32,000 nt of DNA from an uncultured archaeon (GCA_964648855.1 CAZYLT010000003.1:90001-122000); one strand, 5' to 3'; positions 12,228 through 27,940 are shown, numbered from the stretch's first letter. Made by a program: numbers and translations. The notes: generated by a model from the letters alone, not told the origin.

Positions 12228-14033
12228 TCATGGACGATGACCGTGTCGTTGAATGTATCGTTCAATTGCTTCAGGACCCGTCCTTCCAAATGCCTTGTCT
12301 AGAGATTTCTTACTGATATGTAAAATCGAGGGTCTCCCATGACAACAATTGAATCTGTTTGGTGTTCTGACCAATTCTGTCACAAGATTGCTAATTTGTT
12401 GATTATTCAGACCCTGCCCCGCTCGAATGGCTGAGTGGCATGCGATGACTCGCATTACACTGTCCATGAATTCGTGTCGAGCACTATCCAAGTCGATTTC
12501 TAACAGCCTATCTACGAAGGCAAGTATCTCTTCTCTCGTAGCTCGTGAACCGAAAACATCTGGTAATGTCGAAACCAGAATCTCATTGCCCCCAAAGTTA
12601 CTGACGGAAAACCCAAGCTTATGCAACTCATCTGAGATCTCAAGAATCCGTTCCTTGTCAGGAGGGCTCAGCTCCAGAACTAGGGGTTCTAGTAACTCCT
12701 GGATTGGTGTCCGATTTTCTTGCACTCTACCCTTGAGCTGTTCATATAAAATCCGTTCATGAGCAGCATGCTGGTCAATCAAAAGAAGATTATCATCTAT
12801 CTCTACCAATAGGTAAAGATTATTGAATTGACCTAGGATGCGAAGTGTACCTTCAATTTCATCCAAGGTTTCCAGTATACCTGATTCCAGCTTTTGGGAA
12901 TCCAAAACAAGTTGTTCTGACACTGTTCTTTGTTGTGGACCTGTATCAACTGTTTTGGCTGAAACCCCTTTCTTTTCGGTTGCGGTTTCAGATTTTGTTC
13001 CAGTTTCTCCCTCATCTAGGGTGTCCTGTTGTTGCTTTGTGTGAGATACTCTCCCAATTGCTCTTTCAACAGCTTCACGCAACATAGTTACAATCTTGTC
13101 GATGTCTTGGATTCTGACTTCGCGCTTTGTTGGATGAACGTTTGCATCAACCATCTTCGGATTGAGCCCAATATCAATACAGCAAACGGGGAACCTGCCC
13201 TTCATAAGTAAAGTGGAGTAAGCCTGTTCTACCGCCAAGCTCAATCTATCATCAGTAATCGGTCTCTTGCGAACTGAGAAATATTCTCTTCCTCTATTGC
13301 CCCTTGAAACGGGCGGTTTGGCGACGAATCCGGATATTACCACTCCGTTTTCATCGTGCTGAAAGTCCACTAAATGCTTCGCAATATCAGCTCCCCAAAG
13401 ACAAAGAACGCGGTCTCTGGAGGTCTGTTTCGGCGGACATGCAAATGCTAAACTTCCATCACGAGCGAGTCTGAATCCAACATCGTTTCTTATGATTGCA
13501 TGACTGGCTACTGCTTCATACACACGGTGACTCTCAACTCGTGGGTCCGAGAGATGTTTTCTTCTAGCAGGTACGTTTTCGAAGAGATTGGCCACAGTTA
13601 CAGTAGTACCAGGAGGTCTTGCTGCATCCGAAACAGAAGGAATCCCCCCTGCTTCAGATTCAATTCGTGAGCCAACTTGTTCATCGATATGACGAGATGT
13701 AATAACAAGTTCAGCCATGGATGCAATGCTTGCCAGAGCCTCACCACGAAATCCGTAGGTTAGAACTGATTCAATATCATCCTTTGTTCGGATCTTGCTG
13801 GTTGAGTGTCGAAGAGCACACAAAGGTGCATCTTCTTTCAGAATCCCCTCACCATTGTCTGAGACCTTAATCCCTTCGATGCCTCCGGATTCTATCTCAA
13901 TCGTAATAGATGTAGCTTTTGCATCAAGTGAATTCTCAATTAGTTCTTTAACAATCGAGGCCGGGTTCTCTACAACTTCACCTGCAGAAATCAGGGAAAT
14001 GAGTGAGTCATCAAGAACCTCAATTTTGCCCAT
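12228..14033 (-). CDS. mutL: DNA mismatch repair endonuclease MutL
   Basis: AGEVVENPASIVKELIENSLDA, DNGEG, HSTSKI, GFRGEAL, DANVHPTK; endonuclease motifs DQHAAHERILYE, ACH and CCHGRP. Confidence 0.97.
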   Translation of the reverse strand: MGKIEVLDDSLISLISAGEVVENPASIVKELIENSLDAKATSITIEIESGGIEGIKVSDNGEGILKEDAPLCALRHSTSKIRTKDDIESVLTYGFRGEALASIASMAELVITSRHIDEQVGSRIESEAGGIPSVSDAARPPGTTVTVANLFENVPARRKHLSDPRVESHRVYEAVASHAIIRNDVGFRLARDGSLAFACPPKQTSRDRVLCLWGADIAKHLVDFQHDENGVVISGFVAKPPVSRGNRGREYFSVRKRPITDDRLSLAVEQAYSTLLMKGRFPVCCIDIGLNPKMVDANVHPTKREVRIQDIDKIVTMLREAVERAIGRVSHTKQQQDTLDEGETGTKSETATEKKGVSAKTVDTGPQQRTVSEQLVLDSQKLESGILETLDEIEGTLRILGQFNNLYLLVEIDDNLLLIDQHAAHERILYEQLKGRVQENRTPIQELLEPLVLELSPPDKERILEISDELHKLGFSVSNFGGNEILVSTLPDVFGSRATREEILAFVDRLLEIDLDSARHEFMDSVMRVIACHSAIRAGQGLNNQQISNLVTELVRTPNRFNCCHGRPSILHISKKSLDKAFGRTGPEAIERYIQRHGHRP

Positions 14034-17189: not shown

Positions 17190-19793
17190 TCATTCTGTTC
17201 TCCGCTTGAGTTCATCCTGAATCTCCTTCAGACGGAGAAGAGCATCCATTGGTGTAGTTCTCTCAAGGTCCATGATTTTAATTCTCTCCAATAGCGGATC
17301 CTCTACTGTCAGTGGCTCAAGACTAGTTTGCATCACTTCCGTACTGTCAATATCCTCTTCAGTTATTGCAACTCGATTATCATTCTCAAGTTTTTGTAAC
17401 ATCTTCCTGGCTCGAATTACGACATTTTCGGGTACCCCGGCCAGAGAAGCCACATGGACCCCATAGCTCTTATCGGTACCACCATCGACAACCTTGTAAA
17501 GAAACACAATAGAATCTCCTGATTCCTTAGCAAGGGTATGTACATTCTTGACTCCATGGTATGTTTCTGCCATGTCCGTTAGCTGATGATAATGAGTGGC
17601 AAAGAGCGTACGTGTCTTCATTTTCACTATCTCTTCAGCAACTGCCCACGCCAAAGCCATCCCATCAAAGGTCGAGGTACCCCTGCCAATTTCATCCAAG
17701 ATTACGAGCGACCGGTCTGTCGCATTGTTTAGGATGTTCGCAGTTTCAACCATCTCTACCATGAATGTTGACTGCCTACCGGTCAGATCATCAAAAGCAC
17801 CCACTCTCGTAAAAATCCTATCAACGATGCCAATCTCTGCATTCCTTGCAGGAACAAAGGACCCCATCTGTGCCATCAACACAATGAGAGCAGACTGGCG
17901 CATGTAGGTACTCTTGCCCCCCATGTTTGGTCCAGTCACGATCAGAAGTGTTGTTCCTCCATCACCAATTTCTAAGCTGTTTGGAACAAACTCATTTTGC
18001 CCAAGAATCATCTCCATTGCTGGATGTCTGCCATCTGTTATCTTGATCTTGGTTGATTCAGAAAAGATTGGCCTAGAATATTGCCTCTTCACGGCTGTTT
18101 CTGCCAAACAATACAGGACATCTATGGCCGCAATAGCCTCTGTATTCTTTCTTAGCGCATCTAGGTTTTCTTTAACTTGCTCGCGCAGCTCCTCATATAT
18201 CTCATACTCGAGGTCATGAATCCTTTCTTCTCCTGAGAGAACGGCAGCCTCCTTTTCTTTCAGCTCAGGGATGATGTATCTTTCCGCATTTGTGAGAGTC
18301 TGTTTCCGCTCGTAATCGTCGGGTACAGATTCAACATTGGACTTGGTGACTTCAATATAATATCCAAATACTTTGTTGTATCCGACTTTCAGTGATTTTA
18401 TTCCTGTTCGCTTTCTCTCCTTTGTCTGCAGGGATGCAATCCATTTCTTATCACTTGATATTGAGTTCCTTAACTCGTCCAAGTCATCGTTAAAACCATC
18501 ACGAATTATTCCTCCCTCTCGAACCGTAACAGGAGGGTCTTCCACTAGTGCAGCCTTGAGAGTGTCTACCAACTCGGTTAAGGGGTCAATGGCGCCGAGG
18601 GAACCAACAATCATCTTGGATTCAAGACCACTCAAACTATCCTTTATGCTGGGAATCTTCAAAAGCGCATCTCGAAGCTGAGCAAGGTTTCTTGCTCCCC
18701 CTGTGCCAAACACAACCCGACTCGTTGTCCTTTCCAAGTCTCCCAATTCCCGGAGACTCCTGTAGGCCTCAGACCTATGCATAGCATTTCTTGCTAGTTC
18801 TTCCACTGAGTCAAGGCGCGTGCCAATGGATTTGATATCCTGTAAGGGTTGCAGTAGCCAAGATTTGAGTTTTCTTTTTCCCATTGGAGTGGCATTCTTC
18901 GAAAAAACCTCAAGAAGAGTGCCTCGCGTTGTATTCTCACGTGCATTACGTACAAGCTCAAGATTTCTTTGAGTAGTCGCATCAAGAATGAGGTAGTCAT
19001 TTAAGCTATAGGTCCGTAGACCGGAGATTGTCACCGCGTTCATCTTGTGCACCTCATGCAGGTACTCCAAAACAGCACCACAGGCTCCTACCGCGACTCT
19101 CTTTTCTGCCAGTCCGAATCCATCTAAAGTAGACACTCCAAATTGATTCTTGAGCAGCTTCTCGGCACTTCTTGCAGAAAAATCAGCAGAGGGCCTCGTG
19201 GTTATTTTTGTCCCCATATCTGTCAGGACTTCCCGAATCTTCTGATTCCTTGAGAAATCCTCAGGAAGTAATACTTCTGCCGGACCAATCCGGGCGACCT
19301 CACTCAATACTCCTTCATCGTAGATGCTTCCTTGCGTTTCGGTGGCGATGAAATCACCAGTTGAAACGTCAACGGCTGCAATCCCTATCTGGCCATCATG
19401 TTCAATAAACGCTGCAAGGTAGTTATTTGATTCTGCATCCAGCATATTTGATTCAATAATTGTACCTGGAGTCACGACGCGAACGACATCTCTTTTGACC
19501 AAACCCTTGGCTTGAGAGGCATCTTCCACTTGGTCTGCAATGGCAACAGTTTCACCCGCTTCAAGCAGCTTCGCCACATACCCATCAACAGAATGATACG
19601 GCACACCGCACATTGGCCATCTGTCCACTCCCTCTCCTCTTGCCGTTAGAACAATGTCAAGAATCTGACTTGCCTTTTTCGCATCTTCGTTAAACATCTC
19701 ATAGAAGTCGCCGAGTCTAAAGAGAAGAATACAATCTGGATACTGGCGTTTTATCTGCAAGTATTGACGCTGCATAGGCGTATTCTTCTTCAT
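17190..19793 (-). CDS. mutS: DNA mismatch repair protein MutS (MutS1)
   Basis: TPMQRQY, mismatch-binding GDFYEMF, Walker A TGPNMGGKST, STFMVEM, DEIGRGTST, ATHYH and SYG motifs. Confidence 0.98.
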   Translation of the reverse strand: MKKNTPMQRQYLQIKRQYPDCILLFRLGDFYEMFNEDAKKASQILDIVLTARGEGVDRWPMCGVPYHSVDGYVAKLLEAGETVAIADQVEDASQAKGLVKRDVVRVVTPGTIIESNMLDAESNNYLAAFIEHDGQIGIAAVDVSTGDFIATETQGSIYDEGVLSEVARIGPAEVLLPEDFSRNQKIREVLTDMGTKITTRPSADFSARSAEKLLKNQFGVSTLDGFGLAEKRVAVGACGAVLEYLHEVHKMNAVTISGLRTYSLNDYLILDATTQRNLELVRNARENTTRGTLLEVFSKNATPMGKRKLKSWLLQPLQDIKSIGTRLDSVEELARNAMHRSEAYRSLRELGDLERTTSRVVFGTGGARNLAQLRDALLKIPSIKDSLSGLESKMIVGSLGAIDPLTELVDTLKAALVEDPPVTVREGGIIRDGFNDDLDELRNSISSDKKWIASLQTKERKRTGIKSLKVGYNKVFGYYIEVTKSNVESVPDDYERKQTLTNAERYIIPELKEKEAAVLSGEERIHDLEYEIYEELREQVKENLDALRKNTEAIAAIDVLYCLAETAVKRQYSRPIFSESTKIKITDGRHPAMEMILGQNEFVPNSLEIGDGGTTLLIVTGPNMGGKSTYMRQSALIVLMAQMGSFVPARNAEIGIVDRIFTRVGAFDDLTGRQSTFMVEMVETANILNNATDRSLVILDEIGRGTSTFDGMALAWAVAEEIVKMKTRTLFATHYHQLTDMAETYHGVKNVHTLAKESGDSIVFLYKVVDGGTDKSYGVHVASLAGVPENVVIRARKMLQKLENDNRVAITEEDIDSTEVMQTSLEPLTVEDPLLERIKIMDLERTTPMDALLRLKEIQDELKRRTE

Positions 19794-19906: not shown

Positions 19907-20584
19907 CTACATGATTGGGTCTAATCCGGTAAAGAACGAAATTGCCAGCAATATCCCAATGGTCAATAGCCCTGCAAGAATTGTTTTTGCTGTGTATTTT
20001 GCAGTACTGGCTCCTGACATCTGACCCAAGTATATTCCCAAAATGAATAGGAGAATGAATCCCATCCCAATCGCAGCTACAAAAGATTCCCAATAACCAA
20101 TTACTCCAAAAAGGGCGAGAATCATTGGTATGATTGTGACCAGAATCGAGAGAGCTGGGGTGGCTCCATTCACAAATGAAACGAACATTGTTGTTTCTCG
20201 TTCAGCCCTTAGAATAAGCGAATGGCTCAGTTTTACACCACCGTCATTTTCCAATTCCTTGATGAGATGTTCGCCTTCTGCTGATTCGGTGAGGTAGGTC
20301 GCTCCAAAGCCGGCAATAAAGTGAGCTATTCCTGCTCCGAAGGCTGCTAGTAGAGTAGCTTGGAATACTAAGAACATGTCTTGGAAATGTATAGCGATGA
20401 AGCCACCAGTTATAATCCCTAGTACAGGCAGTACGCCATCAAACACATCTATGGCAATGTGGCGTCTCACAATTTCCATTCGATGAGTTACTCTGAGTTC
20501 CTCTTGTAGCCGCTCAAGTATGGTAGTTTCCTTCCCGGCGTTATATCCTTGATCATCTTTTTCGATACTAGATGCCATTCCCAA
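19907..20584 (-). CDS. VIT1/CCC1-family membrane transporter (Fe/Mn), paralog 2
   Basis: FDGVLPVLG and YLTESAE motifs; about 5 TM helices; clearly similar to the adjacent gene. The start may be ATG 20578. Confidence 0.75.
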   Translation of the reverse strand: MGMASSIEKDDQGYNAGKETTILERLQEELRVTHRMEIVRRHIAIDVFDGVLPVLGIITGGFIAIHFQDMFLVFQATLLAAFGAGIAHFIAGFGATYLTESAEGEHLIKELENDGGVKLSHSLILRAERETTMFVSFVNGATPALSILVTIIPMILALFGVIGYWESFVAAIGMGFILLFILGIYLGQMSGASTAKYTAKTILAGLLTIGILLAISFFTGLDPIM

Positions 20585-20637
20585 TCCCGTTTTCTGTTGT
20601 TGTTTTTACATATGAATTGTAGTAAGGGCCTCTTCCC

Positions 20638-21300
20638 TTACGCCCCAGTAAACAAGGATATCAACCACATTAAAATGACTACGATAAAACCAGCAGCTAG
20701 TGTCTTGAAACCATAAGAAATGGTATTCGTCTTTGAAACACTACCTAAGAACATTCCGAGGATAAATAGAAGGACAAGTCCTGCCGCTACGCAGTAAATG
20801 AATGCAGTAAACACAGATGCTATTCCGAGAGGGACCAGAATGAGGGGGGCTATTGTTGCCAAAACAGATAATGCTGGGGAGAAACCGTTTATCAAAGATA
20901 CTACTATTGTTGCAGTTCGCGTCGCCTTTGCATATGCTGACCGACTCAAATCTGATAGCATAGATCGTTCTAACTCTTTGAAATCTCGTTTCCTTTCTGC
21001 CTTCTCAGTTAGATATGAAGAAGAAATACCTGACACAAACATGGCGAGGCCAGTTCCGACTGCAGCCAAGAGGGTGGTTGTGTATACGGTTTCGGGTGCA
21101 GAATTTGCCAGAGCGATGATTCCCCCCAACACTATTCCCATCACCGGAAGAACGCCGTCAAAGGAATTCATCGCCAAGTAACGTCGCGCAATTTCTACAC
21201 CTTCCACATATTGCAGTTGAGTAGTTATTTTGTCAATGAAATTGGTTTTTCCATTCTCATTGTACCCAAATACAGCTTCATGGTTTTCGTCTTCAGCCAA
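20638..21300 (-). CDS. VIT1/CCC1-family membrane transporter (Fe/Mn), paralog 1
   Basis: NSFDGVLPVMG and AMFVSGISSSYLTEKAER motifs; about 5 TM helices; TTG start with GAGGA SD. Confidence 0.8.
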   Translation of the reverse strand: MAEDENHEAVFGYNENGKTNFIDKITTQLQYVEGVEIARRYLAMNSFDGVLPVMGIVLGGIIALANSAPETVYTTTLLAAVGTGLAMFVSGISSSYLTEKAERKRDFKELERSMLSDLSRSAYAKATRTATIVVSLINGFSPALSVLATIAPLILVPLGIASVFTAFIYCVAAGLVLLFILGMFLGSVSKTNTISYGFKTLAAGFIVVILMWLISLFTGA

Positions 21301-21443: not shown

Positions 21444-22655
21444 TTGGAAGACATTGAACAGTACGATGCAGTAATCATAGGTGCTGGACCTGCGGGATTA
21501 TCAACTGCAGGGGTGATTGCCAAAAAGGGGTTTAGGACCCTCATAGTTGAACGAAAATCGAGGGTAGGTATTCCTGTGCTTTGTGGAGAATTCCTGCCTA
21601 CAGTACGGGAACTGCGAGATATACTGCCCAACTCGAAAAGGGTTGACAGAGTCTGCGATATTCACAACTCGATGGTTTTGAATCGTTGCAGGCATATCGT
21701 GTTAGTTTCACCTTATGGTTATGAATATGAGATTCCTATGAGAGCTAGGGTCATAGACCGTGCAGCTTTTGACCAGTATTTGGTGGAGCGCGCTGTCAAT
21801 GCTGGAGCTCATCTCGTAACAGGAACAAGACTCAAAGAACGAGTTGACCAGAATCAGGTCCGATTGATTTCAGGCAAAACGAGTAGGATTGTCAATTACA
21901 CTGCTTTGGTTGGTGCGGATGGTCCTTTGTCTAAAGTAGCACGCTGTGTGCCAGGACTGAGTCAGCAAGGAAAGAATGACCTGAGCACATCGATACAATA
22001 TACCATTGAAGGAACTGGATTTGATTCCGATAGAATCTTTATGTTCTTCGGTAATATGGCGCCTGGGGGATATGCATGGGTAATTCCGAGAGGTCCTTCT
22101 GAGGCCAATGTAGGGCTTGGGTTGAGACATTCCTATGCACACCCAGCAAAACCTCTGAGAGATTATCTTGAACATTTTATTGACAACTGCCTCAATGAAT
22201 CTTTGGGGATACGGCATTCCAAAATCAAGAGAAAAATTAGTGCGTTTATTCCTGTCAATGGACCTGTCCCTAATACTACTGCTGATGATGCTCTTCTTGT
22301 CGGTGATGCTGCATCTCATGTCATGTCAACAAATGGAGGCGGCATTCCAACAGCCCTGATTGGTGGTGATATTGCAGGCGAAGCCATAGCGAACTTTTTC
22401 GAAGAGGAAGCGCAATTATCCAATTACGAGGAAACGTGGCGCAGGGAATTTGGTCAGGAGCTGGCTACAGGCGCATCGCTTCTTTCAATAGCAGGCATCC
22501 CGATGTTGAGTGACTGCCTTACAGAACGGGCTATGAGATTCTTCGGAAGACGTATACTTAATGATGTCATCCGCTGCAGAATACCTTATCCGTTCCAACA
22601 AATGACTTCGTCCATCAATTTTGTAACTAGCACAATCAAACGTCTGTTCCAATGA
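21444..22655 (+). CDS. Geranylgeranyl reductase-family FAD oxidoreductase
   Basis: IIGAGPAG, LCGE, DRAAFD, GADG, PGGYAWVIP, VGDAA and GGGI motifs. Confidence 0.92.
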   Translation: MEDIEQYDAVIIGAGPAGLSTAGVIAKKGFRTLIVERKSRVGIPVLCGEFLPTVRELRDILPNSKRVDRVCDIHNSMVLNRCRHIVLVSPYGYEYEIPMRARVIDRAAFDQYLVERAVNAGAHLVTGTRLKERVDQNQVRLISGKTSRIVNYTALVGADGPLSKVARCVPGLSQQGKNDLSTSIQYTIEGTGFDSDRIFMFFGNMAPGGYAWVIPRGPSEANVGLGLRHSYAHPAKPLRDYLEHFIDNCLNESLGIRHSKIKRKISAFIPVNGPVPNTTADDALLVGDAASHVMSTNGGGIPTALIGGDIAGEAIANFFEEEAQLSNYEETWRREFGQELATGASLLSIAGIPMLSDCLTERAMRFFGRRILNDVIRCRIPYPFQQMTSSINFVTSTIKRLFQ

Positions 22656-22683
22656 CCCCATACCATGGCATCCGAATTGCCCA

Positions 22684-23757
22684 CTAGAATTTACGTTGAA
22701 CCACAAAGTCTGCAAGGTCAATAAAGAGTTCTTTGTTTGGAAACTTCATGGCCCTTATTGCTACCTTTGATGCATTGGCAAAATTCTTTGCACGGTCTGT
22801 TGCCCGGTCTATTGCTCCAGAGTCATCAATGAGTGTGAGAGCCAAGGAGTAATTTCCCCTGCTAATCTCCTCAACACACTCATCTCTCACGTCAGGCTCG
22901 CACGATTCTAATGCATATAACAGAACCAGATTGCTACTACCGGCTTGAAGGTCGGTTAGAACTGACTTTCCTGATACCTCTGAACCGGATGTGAAATCAA
23001 TCACATCATCGCGAATCTGAAATGCATATCCTAGATTCTCAGCATATTCAACCAATCCTCTGACTTCTCTATCACCTGCCCTGCCCACAGCTGATCCAAT
23101 ATTTACGGCTTCTATCATGAAAGAAACGGTCTTTCTTTTTGCAACTTGAAGGTATTCGTCTTCACTAAAAGAAAGGAGCTCGTTGACACTCAAAATTGAA
23201 TCCTGTGCTTCCCCTTCGCACATGGCAATGCCCGTTCTTCCAATCTGCTTTATCAGGTCAGGAGTTCCCCATTTTCCTATGATCTCAAAAGCTTGTGAGA
23301 TCAGCAAATCAGATGCCAATATTGCAATCTTCTCACCGAATTTCTTATGAACCGTCGTCACTCCTCTACGGATTTCTGCGTTATCGATTATATCATCATG
23401 GATTAGACTTGCTGTTTGAAGCAGTTCTGCGGCAACTGTGATTGGGAGAATTCTCTCCAATTCGCCATTCACAGACTCGCATGCCAAGTACGTCAAGAGA
23501 GACCTTATTCTTTTTCCACCTGCTTTAACCAGGTGATATGCCGCATGATAGAGAGCCTCAGGAGTGCCTTGATTGTTTGAAATGAATCTAGCAACTTCTT
23601 CATCGATGAGCTTCAGCCTTTTGCTAATGGCAACCCCAAGAGGCAGGAATGATGTTCGCTCGCTGTATTGAACATCTTTTGATTTAAAATGATTCTCAGA
23701 ATCTGTAGTGGACAAGCGGTGTTTGTCAGTAGACCCTTCCTTCAATTCATAATCCAT
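22684..23757 (-). CDS. Trans-polyprenyl diphosphate synthase, probably medium/long chain
   Basis: GGKRIR, first Asp-rich motif ASLIHDDIID followed by RRG, KT motif, and second Asp-rich motif FQIRDDVID. Confidence 0.93.
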   Translation of the reverse strand: MDYELKEGSTDKHRLSTTDSENHFKSKDVQYSERTSFLPLGVAISKRLKLIDEEVARFISNNQGTPEALYHAAYHLVKAGGKRIRSLLTYLACESVNGELERILPITVAAELLQTASLIHDDIIDNAEIRRGVTTVHKKFGEKIAILASDLLISQAFEIIGKWGTPDLIKQIGRTGIAMCEGEAQDSILSVNELLSFSEDEYLQVAKRKTVSFMIEAVNIGSAVGRAGDREVRGLVEYAENLGYAFQIRDDVIDFTSGSEVSGKSVLTDLQAGSSNLVLLYALESCEPDVRDECVEEISRGNYSLALTLIDDSGAIDRATDRAKNFANASKVAIRAMKFPNKELFIDLADFVVQRKF

Positions 23758-23849
23758 CCCCAGGATAATTTGCCCGATGGCATCGCTCAGCTATTATAGA
23801 TTCCGTAAATGACAGCATCTCTTCTTTTATTGATGTTTCATCTAATTGA

Positions 23850-23864
23850 TATCTCATTGAGATA
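23850..23864. promoter_or_regulatory. Candidate operator between the divergent polyprenyl synthase and menA-like genes
   Basis: Perfect 7-1-7 inverted repeat TATCTCA-T-TGAGATA near the centre of the 180-bp intergenic region. Confidence 0.45.
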
Positions 23865-23937
23865 GGACCGCCTTCAGGAAAGTTTTTACCGGCTCGTATT
23901 TTGAGCTTTGTTGCATTAATAGCATGCTATTCGTACA

Positions 23938-25008
23938 ATGAAACAGAAGAGAGCTGTAGATATGGCAGACGAATCGGTAGCCGCAAAGAAGAAAGTATTG
24001 GCGTGGAAATCTCAATTGCGTGCCCCTTTTCTCACTGCATCTGGATTGCCTATTGTGCTCGGTACGTGTGTTGCACTCTCAGTCCATGGAATGATATTTT
24101 GGGATTTCTTTATCCTCGCGATTGTTGCTGGACTCTTTCTTCATTTGGGTGCTAACTCTACCAATGACTACTTCGATCACACTGATGAAGGGTCCGGTTC
24201 TGATGACATCAATGTGGATTTGATCAGACCATTCACCGGAGGTAGCAGAATGATACAGAAAGGTTTGCTTCTTCCAAAAGAGGTTCTTGCTGGTTCTCTG
24301 TTATTCTTCACAATGGGCATAATACTTGGACTCTACCTAGCATACAGCCGTGGTTTCTTCATTCTTGTTTTAGGGATTATTGGCGCCAGCTCTGGATTTT
24401 TCTATTCAGCTCCGCCATTTCGATTTGTCAATCGTGGTGTTGGTGAAGCAGTAATTGGCCTGAATTTTGGCGTACTAACCACTTTTGGAGGATACTACGT
24501 CCAAGCGCTTGATTTCAACCCTGAACCTCTCTTCGCATCAATACCTCTTGCGATTCTAATTGCCGGTATTCTCTTCATTAACGAATTCCCAGATTATAAT
24601 GCCGATAAGGGGGCTGGCAAAAGAACTATCGTTGTTCGACTGGGACGGAAAAGGGCTTCAAGATTATATGGCGTCATGATTTTCATATTGTATATTTACA
24701 CACTCGTTGTCGGATTACTTCAATTCATCTCTCCTATGACATTGATGGCGTTTTCGACACTACCCATCGGATTATTCACTGCAAAACACACCCTTCAACA
24801 CTATGATTCTCCACAGGACTTGGCTCCTGCAAATGCATCAGGGGTTGCTCTGCATTTGCTATTTGGGATAAGTTTCAGCTTAGCCTATGTTCTAGAGCAT
24901 CTGAATTTTGGATTGGTTTGGATCACACTATTCGGTGTAGTGTTCCTGTTGTTCAGTTTTCTCTTTGTTTGGCGTATCCGCAAGCCTGTTCATCATGTGG
25001 AAAACTAA
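23938..25008 (+). CDS. menA: MenA/UBIAD1-like 1,4-dihydroxy-2-naphthoate polyprenyltransferase (UbiA superfamily)
   Basis: NSTNDYFD...GSD, GGSRMI, YSAPPF...GVGE...FG and NEFPDYNADKGAGKRTIVVRLG motifs; about 9-10 TM helices. Confidence 0.85.
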   Translation: MKQKRAVDMADESVAAKKKVLAWKSQLRAPFLTASGLPIVLGTCVALSVHGMIFWDFFILAIVAGLFLHLGANSTNDYFDHTDEGSGSDDINVDLIRPFTGGSRMIQKGLLLPKEVLAGSLLFFTMGIILGLYLAYSRGFFILVLGIIGASSGFFYSAPPFRFVNRGVGEAVIGLNFGVLTTFGGYYVQALDFNPEPLFASIPLAILIAGILFINEFPDYNADKGAGKRTIVVRLGRKRASRLYGVMIFILYIYTLVVGLLQFISPMTLMAFSTLPIGLFTAKHTLQHYDSPQDLAPANASGVALHLLFGISFSLAYVLEHLNFGLVWITLFGVVFLLFSFLFVWRIRKPVHHVEN

Positions 25009-25109
25009 TGGTAGACCCCATCCTTGATGTAATAGGGTCGAAACAACAAATAGGTTTTATACATTAAGGCATGATGCATCTATCGCTTATACTCCTGGGA
25101 AGGCGGCAC

Positions 25110-26336
25110 ATGAGATTCAATTCATTGGAAAAGTACGATTTGCGGGAGATGGCATTCAAGTGTGCTCAATGTAGCTACTGCCAGGTTGGGCATGGCGCGT
25201 GCCCTACCTACAAGGTCAAGCGGCTCGATTCTTACTCTGGAAAAGGAAAGATGCTCATCACAAAGGCTCTAATGCTTGACAGGCTAAAGCCAGAGGATGG
25301 ACTTGAAGGGCTTCGAGATGCCATTTTCGGGTGTACTCTCTGTGGCGGCTGTGAAGAAATTTGTCAAGTTGATATCCCATTCGTGAAGCTATACCAGCTA
25401 ATGCGTTTTGAATTTAGAGAGATGGGGCTTTGGCCTGAGGCTATGAATGCAGCTCGTGATACACTTGTCAAATATCGAAACGTACAGGGGCAACCACAGA
25501 CAGACAGGGTAGACGGATGGTCATACTGGCATCCGAATGAAGATAGTCTGGTAAGGCACGAGCGGAAAAACGCCAAGACCGCCTTCTTCATGGGATGTGT
25601 TTCGTCATTCAACGCGGTACCAATTCAAGCAACTATCTCCTCAACTCTCATTCTTGACAAGCTTGGTGAAGACTTCACATTTCTTGGAGATGAAGAGCAG
25701 TGTTGCGGTGCACCTCTTATCATGACAGGTGATTTTGAAACTGCTAGGGAATTTGCAAATCACAATATCAGGAAATTTCATGAATTAGGTGTTGAAAGAA
25801 TCATCACAAATTGTCCGGGGTGTTATCGAATCTGGAAGCAAGAGTATGAAGAATTATTGGGAATCAATCATTCCTTTGAAATTCTATATGGGTATGAGTA
25901 TTTGGCGAATCTTATGGATGAAGGTAGACTGAACAATCTACTTAACCCAGTGGATGTTACAGTTACATTCCATGATGGGTGTGATGCAGGCCGTAATACA
26001 GGTTTCTTTGAAGAACCTAGGAAAATACTAGAGAATATTCCAGGAATTGAGTTCGTGGAGCTACCCCATAATAAGAACAACTGTTACTGCTGCGGTTCGG
26101 GAGGAGTTCTACGTGCATATGATGAAGAATTTGCGTCGAGAATCAGCCAACTAAAAATTCAGGATATTGAAGATACACGGGCAGACTGGGTAATATCTGG
26201 TTGTCCTTCATGTGTCGATTTCCTTCAATATCAACTACCTAACTGGGAGTCAACCAAGAAATCCAAGGATTTGGCTGTTCTTCTTGGCGAGTCCATGGGC
26301 CTCCGGTGGGATGGCTTAGATGATGTATATCGCTAG
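25110..26336 (+). CDS. HdrD/GlpC/GlcF-like Fe-S protein (2x[4Fe-4S] plus two CCG domains)
   Basis: CAQCSYC...CP and CTLCGGCEEIC ferredoxin motifs; CCG domains FMGC..QCCG..NCPGC and HDGC..YCCG..GCPSC. ATG 25110 is preferred because TATA-like TTTTATAC at about 25055 is too close to ATG 25071. Confidence 0.9.
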   Translation: MRFNSLEKYDLREMAFKCAQCSYCQVGHGACPTYKVKRLDSYSGKGKMLITKALMLDRLKPEDGLEGLRDAIFGCTLCGGCEEICQVDIPFVKLYQLMRFEFREMGLWPEAMNAARDTLVKYRNVQGQPQTDRVDGWSYWHPNEDSLVRHERKNAKTAFFMGCVSSFNAVPIQATISSTLILDKLGEDFTFLGDEEQCCGAPLIMTGDFETAREFANHNIRKFHELGVERIITNCPGCYRIWKQEYEELLGINHSFEILYGYEYLANLMDEGRLNNLLNPVDVTVTFHDGCDAGRNTGFFEEPRKILENIPGIEFVELPHNKNNCYCCGSGGVLRAYDEEFASRISQLKIQDIEDTRADWVISGCPSCVDFLQYQLPNWESTKKSKDLAVLLGESMGLRWDGLDDVYR

Positions 26337-26440
26337 ATCTATTGACAGTAATGGCACAAAGAAAGCGGAGACAATCCGGTATGGAAATACCCGATCACTG
26401 TTTAATGAATCACCATTTAGCAAATTGAGCAGGGAATGAT

Positions 26441-27940
26441 TTGGACATGGCACTAAGCAAGAAACAAGAAAAGGAACTTGGCACACTATTTGGTGATCGA
26501 TTTATAGTGGCGAAACACGAGTTACTCCCATTTTCAACAGACATTGGCACACTTCCAAGAGAAGTTGGATTGATTATGAACAATAAGCCCGATGCACTGG
26601 TTCAGCCAATCAACGCGACGGAGATTAGGGATTTATATGGTATTGCTAGGCGCCACGGCATAGCTCTAATCCCCCGGGGCGCTGGAACGTCAGGCTACGG
26701 TGGTGCCATCCCCATAGACGGTGGAATAACTGTCGATATGCGACGAATGGATAGCATAATTGAAATCGATGAAGAGAACCTCACAGTGACGACCGAACCG
26801 GGAATCTCATGGTCTGAACTTCAATTTGAGCTAAACAGGAACGGTTTGGATTTGCGGTCTTATCCTAGTTCTGCATTATCCGCTACAGTCGGTGGTTGGA
26901 TCAGTCAGGGTGGGGACGGAATCGGATCATTGAAGTATGGTTCAATAAATGACAGTGTAATCGAGGTTGAAGTTGTTCTGCCAAATGGCAACATTATACG
27001 TAGCAGAGATATGCAGCTTTTCTGTGATACCGAGGGCATCTTGGGGATCATCATCAAAGCAAAACTGAGAATCAAAGAGTTGAAAGAAATTGAGCCAATC
27101 GTCTTCAGCATTCCAGATAACCATGGACTGATGACCGCTATCGAAGAAATTCTAGATGAAGGTCCGTTACCTTTTGCAATAAAGGTCGAGGAATCTAACT
27201 ATGTCCAGATAAAGAGGAGAATATGGTCTAAGGAGGAACGCTATCCGTATCCGAGAGGGCATAGTGTGGTCTTAGTTGCTTATGAAGGAAACAAGGATGA
27301 GATACAAGCAGGACTAGATACTGTTCGTGAAGTAGTAGGAAGGGATGATAGCATAATTCACAGTAAGTGGGTTGCAGATTATGAATGGGAGGAAAGATTC
27401 TATCCAATGCGCATCAAGCAACTCGGTCCCAGTCTTGTCGCAGGACAAGCCCACGTTCCGCTTGGGAGTATTGCTTCGGTCCTAAATGATTTCCAGTCAC
27501 AGCAAGTTCCAATGCGAGCTGGCGCAGATGGTTTTGTCACTAGCCGAAACGCCGTGACAATGATGGGATATTACTTAGAAGATGAGAGAGACCTCTTCTT
27601 CATGTTGTCGTGGGTGCAGAGTTTTTCCATTCTTGACATTGCTGAACGGTATGGGGGTCATACTCATTCAACAGGTTTGTGGCTGGCTGATCGCGCAGAG
27701 GAATACTTCGGTAAGGAGCTCCTGGCAAAAATCGCGGCTGCCAAATCGAAACTGGACCCAGAGAACATATCGAACCCCGGTAAGATATTCGGGTTCTGGT
27801 TTCCTTGGGTACTGGGATTCGGAAGGTACTTTATGAGGATAATATTTGAACTTTTGAATAATGGTCCAATCAGGACCATCCAGACTATGAAGTGGATGCT
27901 ACATGGTTTTCCGCCATTGAAATGGCTCAGAAATAGATAA
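26441..27940 (+). CDS. FAD-binding oxidoreductase, VAO/GlcD family
   Basis: PDALVQP, PRGAGTSGYGG, ATVGGWI, GSLKYG, TEGILGII and DPENISNPGK motifs. The start may be ATG 26447. Confidence 0.9.
   Translation: MDMALSKKQEKELGTLFGDRFIVAKHELLPFSTDIGTLPREVGLIMNNKPDALVQPINATEIRDLYGIARRHGIALIPRGAGTSGYGGAIPIDGGITVDMRRMDSIIEIDEENLTVTTEPGISWSELQFELNRNGLDLRSYPSSALSATVGGWISQGGDGIGSLKYGSINDSVIEVEVVLPNGNIIRSRDMQLFCDTEGILGIIIKAKLRIKELKEIEPIVFSIPDNHGLMTAIEEILDEGPLPFAIKVEESNYVQIKRRIWSKEERYPYPRGHSVVLVAYEGNKDEIQAGLDTVREVVGRDDSIIHSKWVADYEWEERFYPMRIKQLGPSLVAGQAHVPLGSIASVLNDFQSQQVPMRAGADGFVTSRNAVTMMGYYLEDERDLFFMLSWVQSFSILDIAERYGGHTHSTGLWLADRAEEYFGKELLAKIAAAKSKLDPENISNPGKIFGFWFPWVLGFGRYFMRIIFELLNNGPIRTIQTMKWMLHGFPPLKWLRNR

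Follow-up and report, generated by a model that had tools for sequence, protein, structure and literature searches.

A Conserved Asgard Gene Cluster with an Orphan MenA-Type Prenyltransferase and Its Proposed Link to a Membrane Redox Carrier

Introduction

The usual picture of Asgard archaea outside the Heimdallarchaeia is one of fermenters or syntrophs that have no membrane electron carrier. A 32 kb stretch of DNA from an uncultured Asgard archaeon (contig C3, positions 90001-122000; here, the window) raises the question of why such an organism keeps five adjacent genes for a GGR-family prenyl reductase, a trans-isoprenyl diphosphate synthase, a MenA-type membrane prenyltransferase, an Fe-S protein and a flavoprotein. 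The original prediction, made from the window alone, took the five genes as the means to build and use a (partly) saturated (demethyl)menaquinone-like or novel lipophilic carrier, perhaps from head groups supplied by partner microbes. The reading favored here, held with moderate confidence, is that the genes form a conserved Asgard module composed of a carrier synthesis half (GGR, synthase and prenyltransferase, hereafter the trio) and a use half, in which the flavoprotein/Fe-S pair connects to the carrier. In the literature searched, no paper describes this Asgard cluster, and 'MenA' annotated in Asgards is taken to indicate a partial menaquinone pathway at most.

The source metagenome-assembled genome (MAG; labelled G000, with contigs C1 etc.) has 3.11 Mb in 62 contigs and is 94.6% complete, and the named organisms closest to its proteins are Thorarchaeota. 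Its family is denoted f1 and the clade of the window g1. The comparisons cover 121 Asgard genomes, including 17 from the same family, with prenyltransferase homologs called at E ≤ 1e-30 and flavoprotein orthologs at E ≤ 1e-60; gene order is compared in about 20 kb fetched around 30 prenyltransferase-bearing genomes.

The Five-Gene Locus

All five open reading frames predicted between window positions 21444 and 27940 are found, with their families matched by profile search, and the orientations differ (+ - + + +) as first described:

21444-22655, plus strand: GGR-family prenyl reductase dependent on flavin adenine dinucleotide (FAD), 403 residues (TIGR02032 and PF22578)
22684-23757, minus strand: trans-isoprenyl diphosphate synthase, 357 residues (PF00348)
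23938-25008, plus strand: MenA/UBIAD1-type UbiA-family membrane prenyltransferase, 356 residues (PF01040; the gene caller start is perhaps 23962)
25056-25061, plus strand: TATA-box-like TTTATA upstream of the Fe-S gene, read from the sequence
25071-26336, plus strand: HdrD/GlpC/GlcF-type Fe-S protein (Fer4_8 and two PF02754 CCG domains)
26441-27940, plus strand: FAD flavoprotein of the vanillyl-alcohol oxidase (VAO)/GlcD fold, 499 residues (PF01565 and PF02913)
27788-27937, plus strand: aromatic amphipathic C-terminal tail of the flavoprotein (about residues 450-499), a presumed membrane-surface anchor

For the Fe-S gene, the most probable start is ATG 25110 and not 25071, as Met14 is invariant in the orthologs, whose N-termini begin there. 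The putative TATA box lies about 49 nt 5' of this ATG, a spacing compatible with an archaeal promoter and with the earlier proposal that the Fe-S gene has a TATA box of its own. The flavoprotein probably starts at ATG 26447. A scan for sigma-70 promoters and terminators, which is unsuited to archaea, finds promoters at and terminators below shuffle expectation.

Conservation and Neighbors in Related Genomes

The five genes are found together, in varying orientations, in genera g1, g2, g6, g7, g8 and g9 of f1. Exceptions are the g6 locus L028, in which GGR lies about 5 kb away, and genus g4, which keeps the synthase and prenyltransferase alone; the g10 contig starts inside the prenyltransferase gene. 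The two nearest relatives (prenyltransferase identities of 79% and 74%) have exactly the gene order of the window, flanks included. More distant loci include those of f16 (three genomes, 29-40% identity), where all five genes reside on one strand with an amine-oxidase/phytoene-desaturase-like gene interposed, and those of f12 and a Hermod-type contig, where the trio is co-directional and the Fe-S/flavoprotein pair is missing. The flavoprotein ortholog is noted in 18 of the 121 genomes, and all 18 encode the prenyltransferase. Because the same genes recur together where their proteins share only 29-67% identity, the clustering is far beyond chance. The conserved clustering that the original prediction asked of relatives is thus observed in f1, f12, f16 and Hermod-type loci.

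In six other f1 genera, the flavoprotein ortholog is 646-669 residues long and has the same fold and amphipathic stretch followed by a complete NuoB domain (PF01058), as exemplified by locus L021 (12252-14192) and also found in L019, L023, L026, L027, L052 and L053; no report of such a fusion is found in the literature searched. The fused gene is followed by a small membrane protein and by nuoA-J-K-C-D-H of a complex I without NuoEFG (headless), and the NuoD of these loci is devoid of the NiFe cysteine motifs. Next to the f12 trio lie a complex I-like operon, whose NuoB is free, a gene similar to type III sulfide:quinone reductase (SQR) and DsrE, while the Hermod-type contig presents TusA, an SQR-like gene, the trio and a flavodoxin. 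The SQR-like gene stands directly beside the trio (L025, 13039-15289; L044, 5035-6499), accompanied by DsrE or TusA. In f16, the flavoprotein ends in a transmembrane helix that replaces the tail and is followed by two antiporter-like (NuoM/N-type) genes, with no nuoA-H adjoining. In one Thor lineage, the prenyltransferase is fused to PNPOx, and four Fe-S/flavoprotein pairs lie around the fusion gene. The prenyltransferase is detected in 33 of the 42 genomes with a strong NuoA match compared to 20 of the 79 others, a comparison that is descriptive, as related genomes are not independent. The main argument that the product of the trio would be a membrane redox carrier is that the trio is the shared neighbor of three kinds of enzymes that work on quinones elsewhere.

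In f12 and Hermod-type loci, a separate, conserved set of genes is found downstream of the prenyltransferase, with fucose-isomerase-like and LarE/LarC/LarB-type members (nickel-pincer cofactor synthesis) (L018, 10504-14422; L024, 5319-9443; L044, 10677-15083). L044 and the fucose-isomerase-like gene of L018 are assigned by Pfam, and the other f12 genes by the sizes and N-termini of the open reading frames.

Identity of the Prenyltransferase

The prenyltransferase matches PF01040 at 99 bits, and its best NCBIfam matches are all MenA models, every one of them below cut-off (score/cut-off of 159/277, 152/264 and 99.4/102.15 bits). By contrast, a control MenA of Asgard family f14, which comes from MenD-bearing genomes, passes the MenA cut-offs (300.8/264 and 224.2/102.15 bits). 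Among solved structures, UBIAD1 is the closest (E = 1.4e-12) and chlorophyll synthase comes next. The protein has two Asp-rich motifs of the MenA type, NDYFD and INEFPDYNADKGAGKRTIVVRLG; NDYFD and NEFPDYNADKGAGKRT match their counterparts in E. coli MenA closely, the TLVVRLG-type stretch included, and a 6-residue insert follows motif 1. A tree was built in which MenA, UbiA and CyoE of E. coli and the paralogs from the source genome serve as references (UBIAD1 and ChlG left out). In this tree, all Asgard orthologs group with E. coli MenA and f14 MenA (99% support by the Shimodaira-Hasegawa-like approximate likelihood ratio test), apart from the paralog that resembles digeranylgeranylglyceryl phosphate (DGGGP) synthase, and the Asgard ortholog clade is sister to E. 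coli plus f14 MenA and outside that clade (few references, long branches).

Based on this sister position and on scores under the MenA cut-offs, unlike those of f14 MenA, the enzyme is MenA-type in its predicted fold and motifs, yet falls into a subfamily of its own. Both these motifs and its place in the tree suggest an aromatic quinol acceptor. Thus, the lipophilic carrier of the original prediction is supported in part: the complex I-like and SQR-like neighbors in relatives speak for it, while the prenyltransferase is not a bona fide MenA by cut-offs and falls outside the MenA clade of genomes with ring genes.

Four UbiA-family genes are found in the host genome; the other three are a DGGGP-synthase-like gene, a decaprenyl-phosphate phosphoribosyltransferase-like gene and a match to the uncharacterized model PRK12875. 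A role of the trio in membrane lipid synthesis, with the prenyltransferase as DGGGP synthase, is rejected, since a separate DGGGP-synthase-like UbiA protein and a synthase resembling geranylgeranyl diphosphate (GGPP) synthase are encoded elsewhere and the tree sets them apart. The grouping with DGGGP synthases that was named beforehand as a sign against the carrier is therefore not seen, the enzyme being placed with MenA and away from this paralog.

MenA-like prenyltransferases with long N-terminal extensions (444-512 residues in total) are encoded at L042 (9001-10539) and L043 (9001-10533), and similar proteins are found in f5, f22 and f25 (L031, L034-L037 and L055). Two of these proteins were checked, one from a Thor lineage and one from a Chloroflexi MAG; in both, the added part is a PNPOx-like FMN/F420 split-barrel domain of about 110-170 residues that might reduce the head group, or deliver it, ahead of prenylation.

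Ring Genes and Origin of the Head Group

No men, mqn or menG gene is found across the 32 kb of the window, in line with what was first reported. Profile searches of the host genome find no MqnA/D and no MqnC, and MenD, MenB and UbiE/MenG have no match over cut-off, the MenB matches being ordinary crotonases. No chorismate-binding enzyme of any kind is found in this genome, and, thus, MenF, PhzE, PabB and TrpE are all absent together. A complete ring pathway elsewhere in the genome, which would have spoken against salvage of the head group, is likewise not found. Of the 121 Asgard genomes, 53 have the prenyltransferase (including 14 of the 17 same-family genomes), three have MenD (all f14) and one has MqnA/D, with a marginal match. 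The absence of ring genes holds in the 17 same-family genomes and nearly all of the 121, and the searches pick up the appropriate control genomes. The orphan prenyltransferase is thus a phylum-wide pattern and not a gap of a single MAG. As the genome has no known men, mqn or chorismate-utilizing route, the head group would either be imported (DHNA- or naphthoquinone-like, where DHNA is 1,4-dihydroxy-2-naphthoate) or derive from an unknown pathway.

A standard (demethyl)menaquinone, with a ring pathway missed through incompleteness of the MAG or through divergence of the men/mqn genes, is considered very improbable. The draft state of the genome (94.6% complete, 62 contigs) would allow for it, as would a published Asgard survey in which the menaquinone pathways of Sif- and Jordarchaeia are called 'near-complete' (PMC9723677). 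The Mqn and MenD searches of the genomes sampled here do not, however, confirm those pathways. Moreover, six independent ring or late-step families would have to be lost from view at once, together with every chorismate-binding enzyme; the same absence is found in the 17 same-family and almost all 121 Asgard genomes, though 53 carry the prenyltransferase; and the searches are adequate in sensitivity, as MenD and a cut-off-passing MenA are detected in f14.

For a phenazine-type head group, the known route is ruled out by the absence of a PhzE-type enzyme from the genome, and such a head group is kept only as a remote lead. The hints that once favored it are a PhzF-family gene beside the other prenyl synthase and the PNPOx (PhzG-like) domains fused to the prenyltransferase in relatives. 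Chorismate synthase is found in the host genome; its presence without TrpE, PabB, MenF or PhzE suggests auxotrophy for tryptophan and folate precursors or the use of non-orthologous enzymes.

Tail Enzymes

The synthase matches PF00348 at 204 bits and is under all NCBIfam equivalog cut-offs (best, IdsA_Meth at 226/468 bits). Its first Asp-rich motif, LLQTASLIHDDIID, is preceded by Ala at position -5 and Ser at -4. The resulting stretch, ASLIHDDIID, compares with ATLLHDDVVD (Ala-Thr) in E. coli IspB, which forms a 40-carbon (C40) chain, versus YSLIHDD (Tyr at -5) in IspA, which forms a C15 chain, and the small residues at -5/-4 are kept in the f1, f12 and Hermod-type orthologs. Judged by these small residues alone, the product is probably longer than C20, a lower limit that does not fix the exact length. 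The host genome encodes just two trans-prenyl synthases, the other of which, on contig 12 (C12), scores best as GGPP-synthase-like and presumably serves the membrane lipids. This second synthase (L040, 1694-3905) has a long insert after the first Asp-rich motif and adjoins a PhzF-family isomerase gene (229 bits, cut-off 76).

The GGR protein exceeds the cut-off of TIGR02032 (207 bits versus 159), matches PF22578 (GGR_cat) and shows the catalytic-type motifs PVLCGE and GGYAWVIP. It is one of about 11 GGR-family paralogs in the genome, from which it is distinguished by its fixed place beside the synthase and prenyltransferase. In Archaeoglobus fulgidus, the GGR-family prenyl reductase AF_0648 acts on the menaquinone side chain rather than on membrane lipids (PMC10821996). 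By analogy to AF_0648 and mycobacterial MenJ, and in view of its position beside the prenyltransferase, the window paralog is a candidate side-chain reductase; it differs from MenJ in scoring 63 bits against an equivalog cut-off of 700.

Flavoprotein and Fe-S Protein

A ferredoxin-type 4-Cys motif occurs twice in the Fe-S protein, as does a complete CCG motif (CX(n)CCGX(m)CXXC), and all 18 Cys ligands are invariant in eight orthologs. Its nearest solved relatives are an HdrD-like 'iron-sulfur-binding reductase' and HdrB; no transmembrane segment is predicted, and no equivalog cut-off is reached among TfrB, LdhH, GlpC, GlcF and HdrB (best, TfrB at 170/385 bits). The flavoprotein matches FAD_binding_4 at 126 bits and FAD-oxidase_C at 39 bits, also reaches no equivalog cut-off, and is nearest to LctD (E = 1e-27), alkyl-DHAP synthase, D-LDH and glycolate oxidase among solved structures. 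Its His-His-Glu metal/substrate site is missing, as GH.GDGN.H is replaced by DGFVTSRN..V and EHG by GGHTHSTG; the replacement motifs are kept in the f1 orthologs, and f16 differs. Conserved motifs of its own are GAGTSGYGGAIP, GGDGIGSLKYG and GGH.HSTG. The aromatic amphipathic C-tail of about 50 residues is absent from the seven paralogs of the genome, which encodes eight adjacent pairs of FAD_binding_4 flavoprotein and CCG Fe-S protein, including that of the window. The seven further pairs are on contigs C1, C2, C7, C8, C9, C14 and C26, and most of them are also without the GlcD-type EHG.

Complex prediction supports binding of the flavoprotein to the Fe-S protein, with the ferredoxin-like domain of the latter docked on the FAD domain in the model. 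The interface score (ipSAE) is 0.88 compared to 0.00 for the best control, a value reached by 58 of 80 solved complexes and by 2 of 110 mismatched pairs; the runs share at least 97% of contacts, and the partner pLDDT (predicted local distance difference test) is at least 86.

The pair might instead be a biosynthetic tailoring enzyme that oxidizes or hydroxylates a prenylated phenolic intermediate without O2, in the manner of VAO and p-cresol methylhydroxylase (PCMH), while the Fe-S protein removes the electrons. Anaerobes need O2-independent ring oxidation, the flavoprotein is devoid of the 2-hydroxyacid metal site, PCMH and eugenol oxidase of the VAO family are among its solved relatives, and the membrane tail would put it at a lipid substrate. 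Such a role is nevertheless improbable, as the best solved relatives are lactate/glycolate dehydrogenases and alkyl-DHAP synthase and not VAO/PCMH, the fusion of a tailoring enzyme to a respiratory NuoB in most of the family is hard to explain, and f12 and Hermod-type genomes keep the trio without the pair.

Carrier Partners in the Window Lineage

The flavoprotein of the window ends at residue 499 with the linker (...PPLKWLRNR) and is followed by ACD-alpha, with no C-terminal NuoB. The unfused state is common to the two relatives at 74-79% prenyltransferase identity, and truncation as an assembly artefact is rejected, since two independent assemblies (flavoprotein identity of 82-87%) show the same gene of 497-498 residues and the same downstream genes. 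When the tree of flavoproteins is rooted on f16, the g1 clade, which is unfused, branches as sister to all those with the fusion, a topology compatible both with a fusion never gained and with one lost in g1. No NuoA is found in the host genome, and the NuoB/NuoD-like genes that it has are all part of a group-4 NiFe hydrogenase-type cluster (C1, 326333-333888) that has a large subunit with RICGICS and DPCMSC motifs as well as NuoB-, NuoH- and Mrp-like subunits and is the sole complex I relative of the genome. By tblastn, SQR-like, f16-type amine oxidase, PNPOx domain, small membrane protein and flavodoxin sequences are not detected in the host genome at E ≤ 1e-6.

These data bear on the alternative that the two halves are unrelated, in which the trio would make a non-redox prenylated lipid (e.g., a membrane regulator or pigment precursor) and the pair would be a soluble-substrate dehydrogenase that passes its electrons to proteins, in the relatives to NuoB directly. 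The NuoB fusion of the sister genera could wire electrons from protein to protein, for which the direct wiring proposed between the Fpo-like complex and HdrD in Methanomassiliicoccales offers a parallel, and the host genome has no obvious quinone-dependent enzymes. The prenyltransferase scores below MenA cut-offs, and carotenoid-type genes (SQS_PSY and amine oxidase-type flavoproteins) are near the trio in Hermod-type and f16 loci. However, the trio is independently paired with three quinone-type partners, namely complex I-like genes without the pair (f12), SQR-like genes (f12 and Hermod-type) and the pair without nuo genes (g1). The f16 pair is likewise found without adjoining nuoA-H, though the two antiporter-like genes come after it. 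In addition, the MenA-type motifs and tree position indicate an aromatic quinol acceptor, and the membrane tail is limited to the clustered flavoprotein. Unrelated halves are, thus, regarded as unlikely, if less so than the tailoring enzyme or the overlooked ring pathway.

Several observations weigh against a carrier module. In the host genome, no NuoA, SQR-like gene or other carrier-dependent enzyme is evident, so that no complete electron path can be drawn. The prenyltransferase is under every curated MenA cut-off and sister to true MenA, in a tree of long branches and few references (without UBIAD1 and ChlG), and its acceptor may be other than a naphthoquinol or may provide no redox head group. 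With eight flavoprotein/Fe-S pairs in the genome, the adjacency of one could be partly historical, and the complex prediction may pass partly through likeness to solved GlcD-type/glycolate oxidase complexes. Gene absences in a genome that is 94.6% complete are, moreover, no proof.

Proposed Mechanism and Comparison with Known Systems

In the carrier module proposed here, the synthase would make a polyprenyl diphosphate, probably longer than C20, and the MenA/UBIAD1-type prenyltransferase would join this chain to an aromatic quinol-type head group, either imported or from the unknown pathway considered above. The dedicated GGR paralog would saturate the side chain, and the product would be a lipophilic redox carrier. 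The amphipathic tail would hold the flavoprotein at the membrane surface, complexed with the HdrD-like Fe-S protein, and the pair would exchange electrons between its substrate and the carrier. The most likely flow would be from substrate to FAD, ferredoxin-type clusters, CCG clusters and carrier, in this order.

Similarly to MenA and UBIAD1, the prenyltransferase is a UbiA-fold protein with MenA-type motifs (NDYxD and INxxxDxxxDxxxGKxTLVVRLG). It differs from MenA in that it is found in genomes without DHNA synthesis or MenG and, in some lineages, is fused to a PNPOx-like domain. The nearest working analog is the DmkA/DmkB system of Firmicutes, which retains a MenA-type prenyltransferase together with a prenyl diphosphate synthase in the absence of ring synthesis and obtains its head group from neighbors. 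The Listeria-type locus pairs dmkA/dmkB with Ndh2. By contrast, the window system is archaeal and Asgard-wide, adds a side-chain reductase, has a VAO-fold flavoprotein and an HdrD-like protein as its partner, and is without MenG. In Lactiplantibacillus plantarum, a quinone auxotroph, DmkA (MenA-type) and DmkB (prenyl synthase) serve to prenylate imported DHNA, and MK-6/7 is formed only when DHNA is fed (PMC10746273). 'Late-steps-only' Men pathways of gut bacteria have led to the proposal that soluble precursors are exchanged between microbes (PMC4746308).

Methanophenazine is a non-standard prenylated carrier of archaea with a ring biosynthesis that is unknown (PMC6315138). The Methanosarcina system includes a C25 prenyl synthase, a partly saturated tail, Fpo (a headless complex I) and HdrDE. 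The window system is similar in being from an anaerobic archaeon with an HdrD-type CCG protein, while a counterpart to the headless complex I is confined to the relatives of the window. It differs in that no HdrE-like cytochrome b or phenazine genes are found in the window genome (PhzE-type absent), in that the prenyltransferase is MenA-like and in that it is known from genes alone.

The GlcDEF, GlpABC and LutABC/LldEFG systems place a flavoprotein and a CCG Fe-S subunit at the membrane without transmembrane helices and deliver electrons to quinone. The flavoprotein and GlcF/GlpC-like CCG Fe-S subunit of the window resemble the GlcDEF, GlpABC and LutABC enzymes, with the difference that the flavoprotein is without the His-His-Glu site, has an amphipathic tail of its own and is fused to NuoB in sister genera.

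Other Genes of the Window

The remainder of the window encodes a ferritin (317-814, at the window start), a SpoIIM-like protein, a giant protein without family match, a rhomboid protein, MutL and MutS, together with pentose-phosphate enzymes, two TIGR00267 membrane proteins, the ACD-alpha mentioned above, an aminotransferase and a 2-phosphoglycerate kinase-like protein. The two TIGR00267 (VIT1/CCC1-like) genes are in tandem (19907-21300) and divergent from the GGR gene, a position that they keep only in the lineage of the window. The mismatch repair genes MutL (12228-14033) and MutS (17190-19793) are a few kb apart, and MutS is near the GGR gene in the window and in several f1 genera.

Implications

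Taken as proposed, the module would combine the enzymes that build a carrier with a dehydrogenase dedicated to it. Across the phylum, an orphan MenA-type prenyltransferase is widely found, accompanied by its own chain synthase and, at most loci, by a chain reductase; no known ring pathway matches it, and its locus is a common neighbor of complex I-like, SQR-like and HdrD-like redox enzymes. Asgard relatives of eukaryotes may, thus, use a membrane redox molecule that is scavenged or still unknown. If the head group is imported, Asgards would depend on quinone precursors, a dependence that is undescribed in the literature searched and matters for models of eukaryogenesis built on syntrophy. An endogenous head group would instead imply a new cofactor pathway, still to be discovered. 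A further possibility, advanced tentatively and with some doubt, is that the Asgard MenA-like clade makes no menaquinone and instead prenylates a new head group from an unrecognized anaerobic pathway, which would yield a new class of archaeal carrier that serves the headless complex I, SQR-like enzymes and HdrD-like flavoprotein dehydrogenases of non-Heimdall Asgards. Such a class, if real, would be comparable in standing to methanophenazine. Lipid-carrier electron transport in relatives of the eukaryotic host, and the molecule on which it would depend, are now directly testable.

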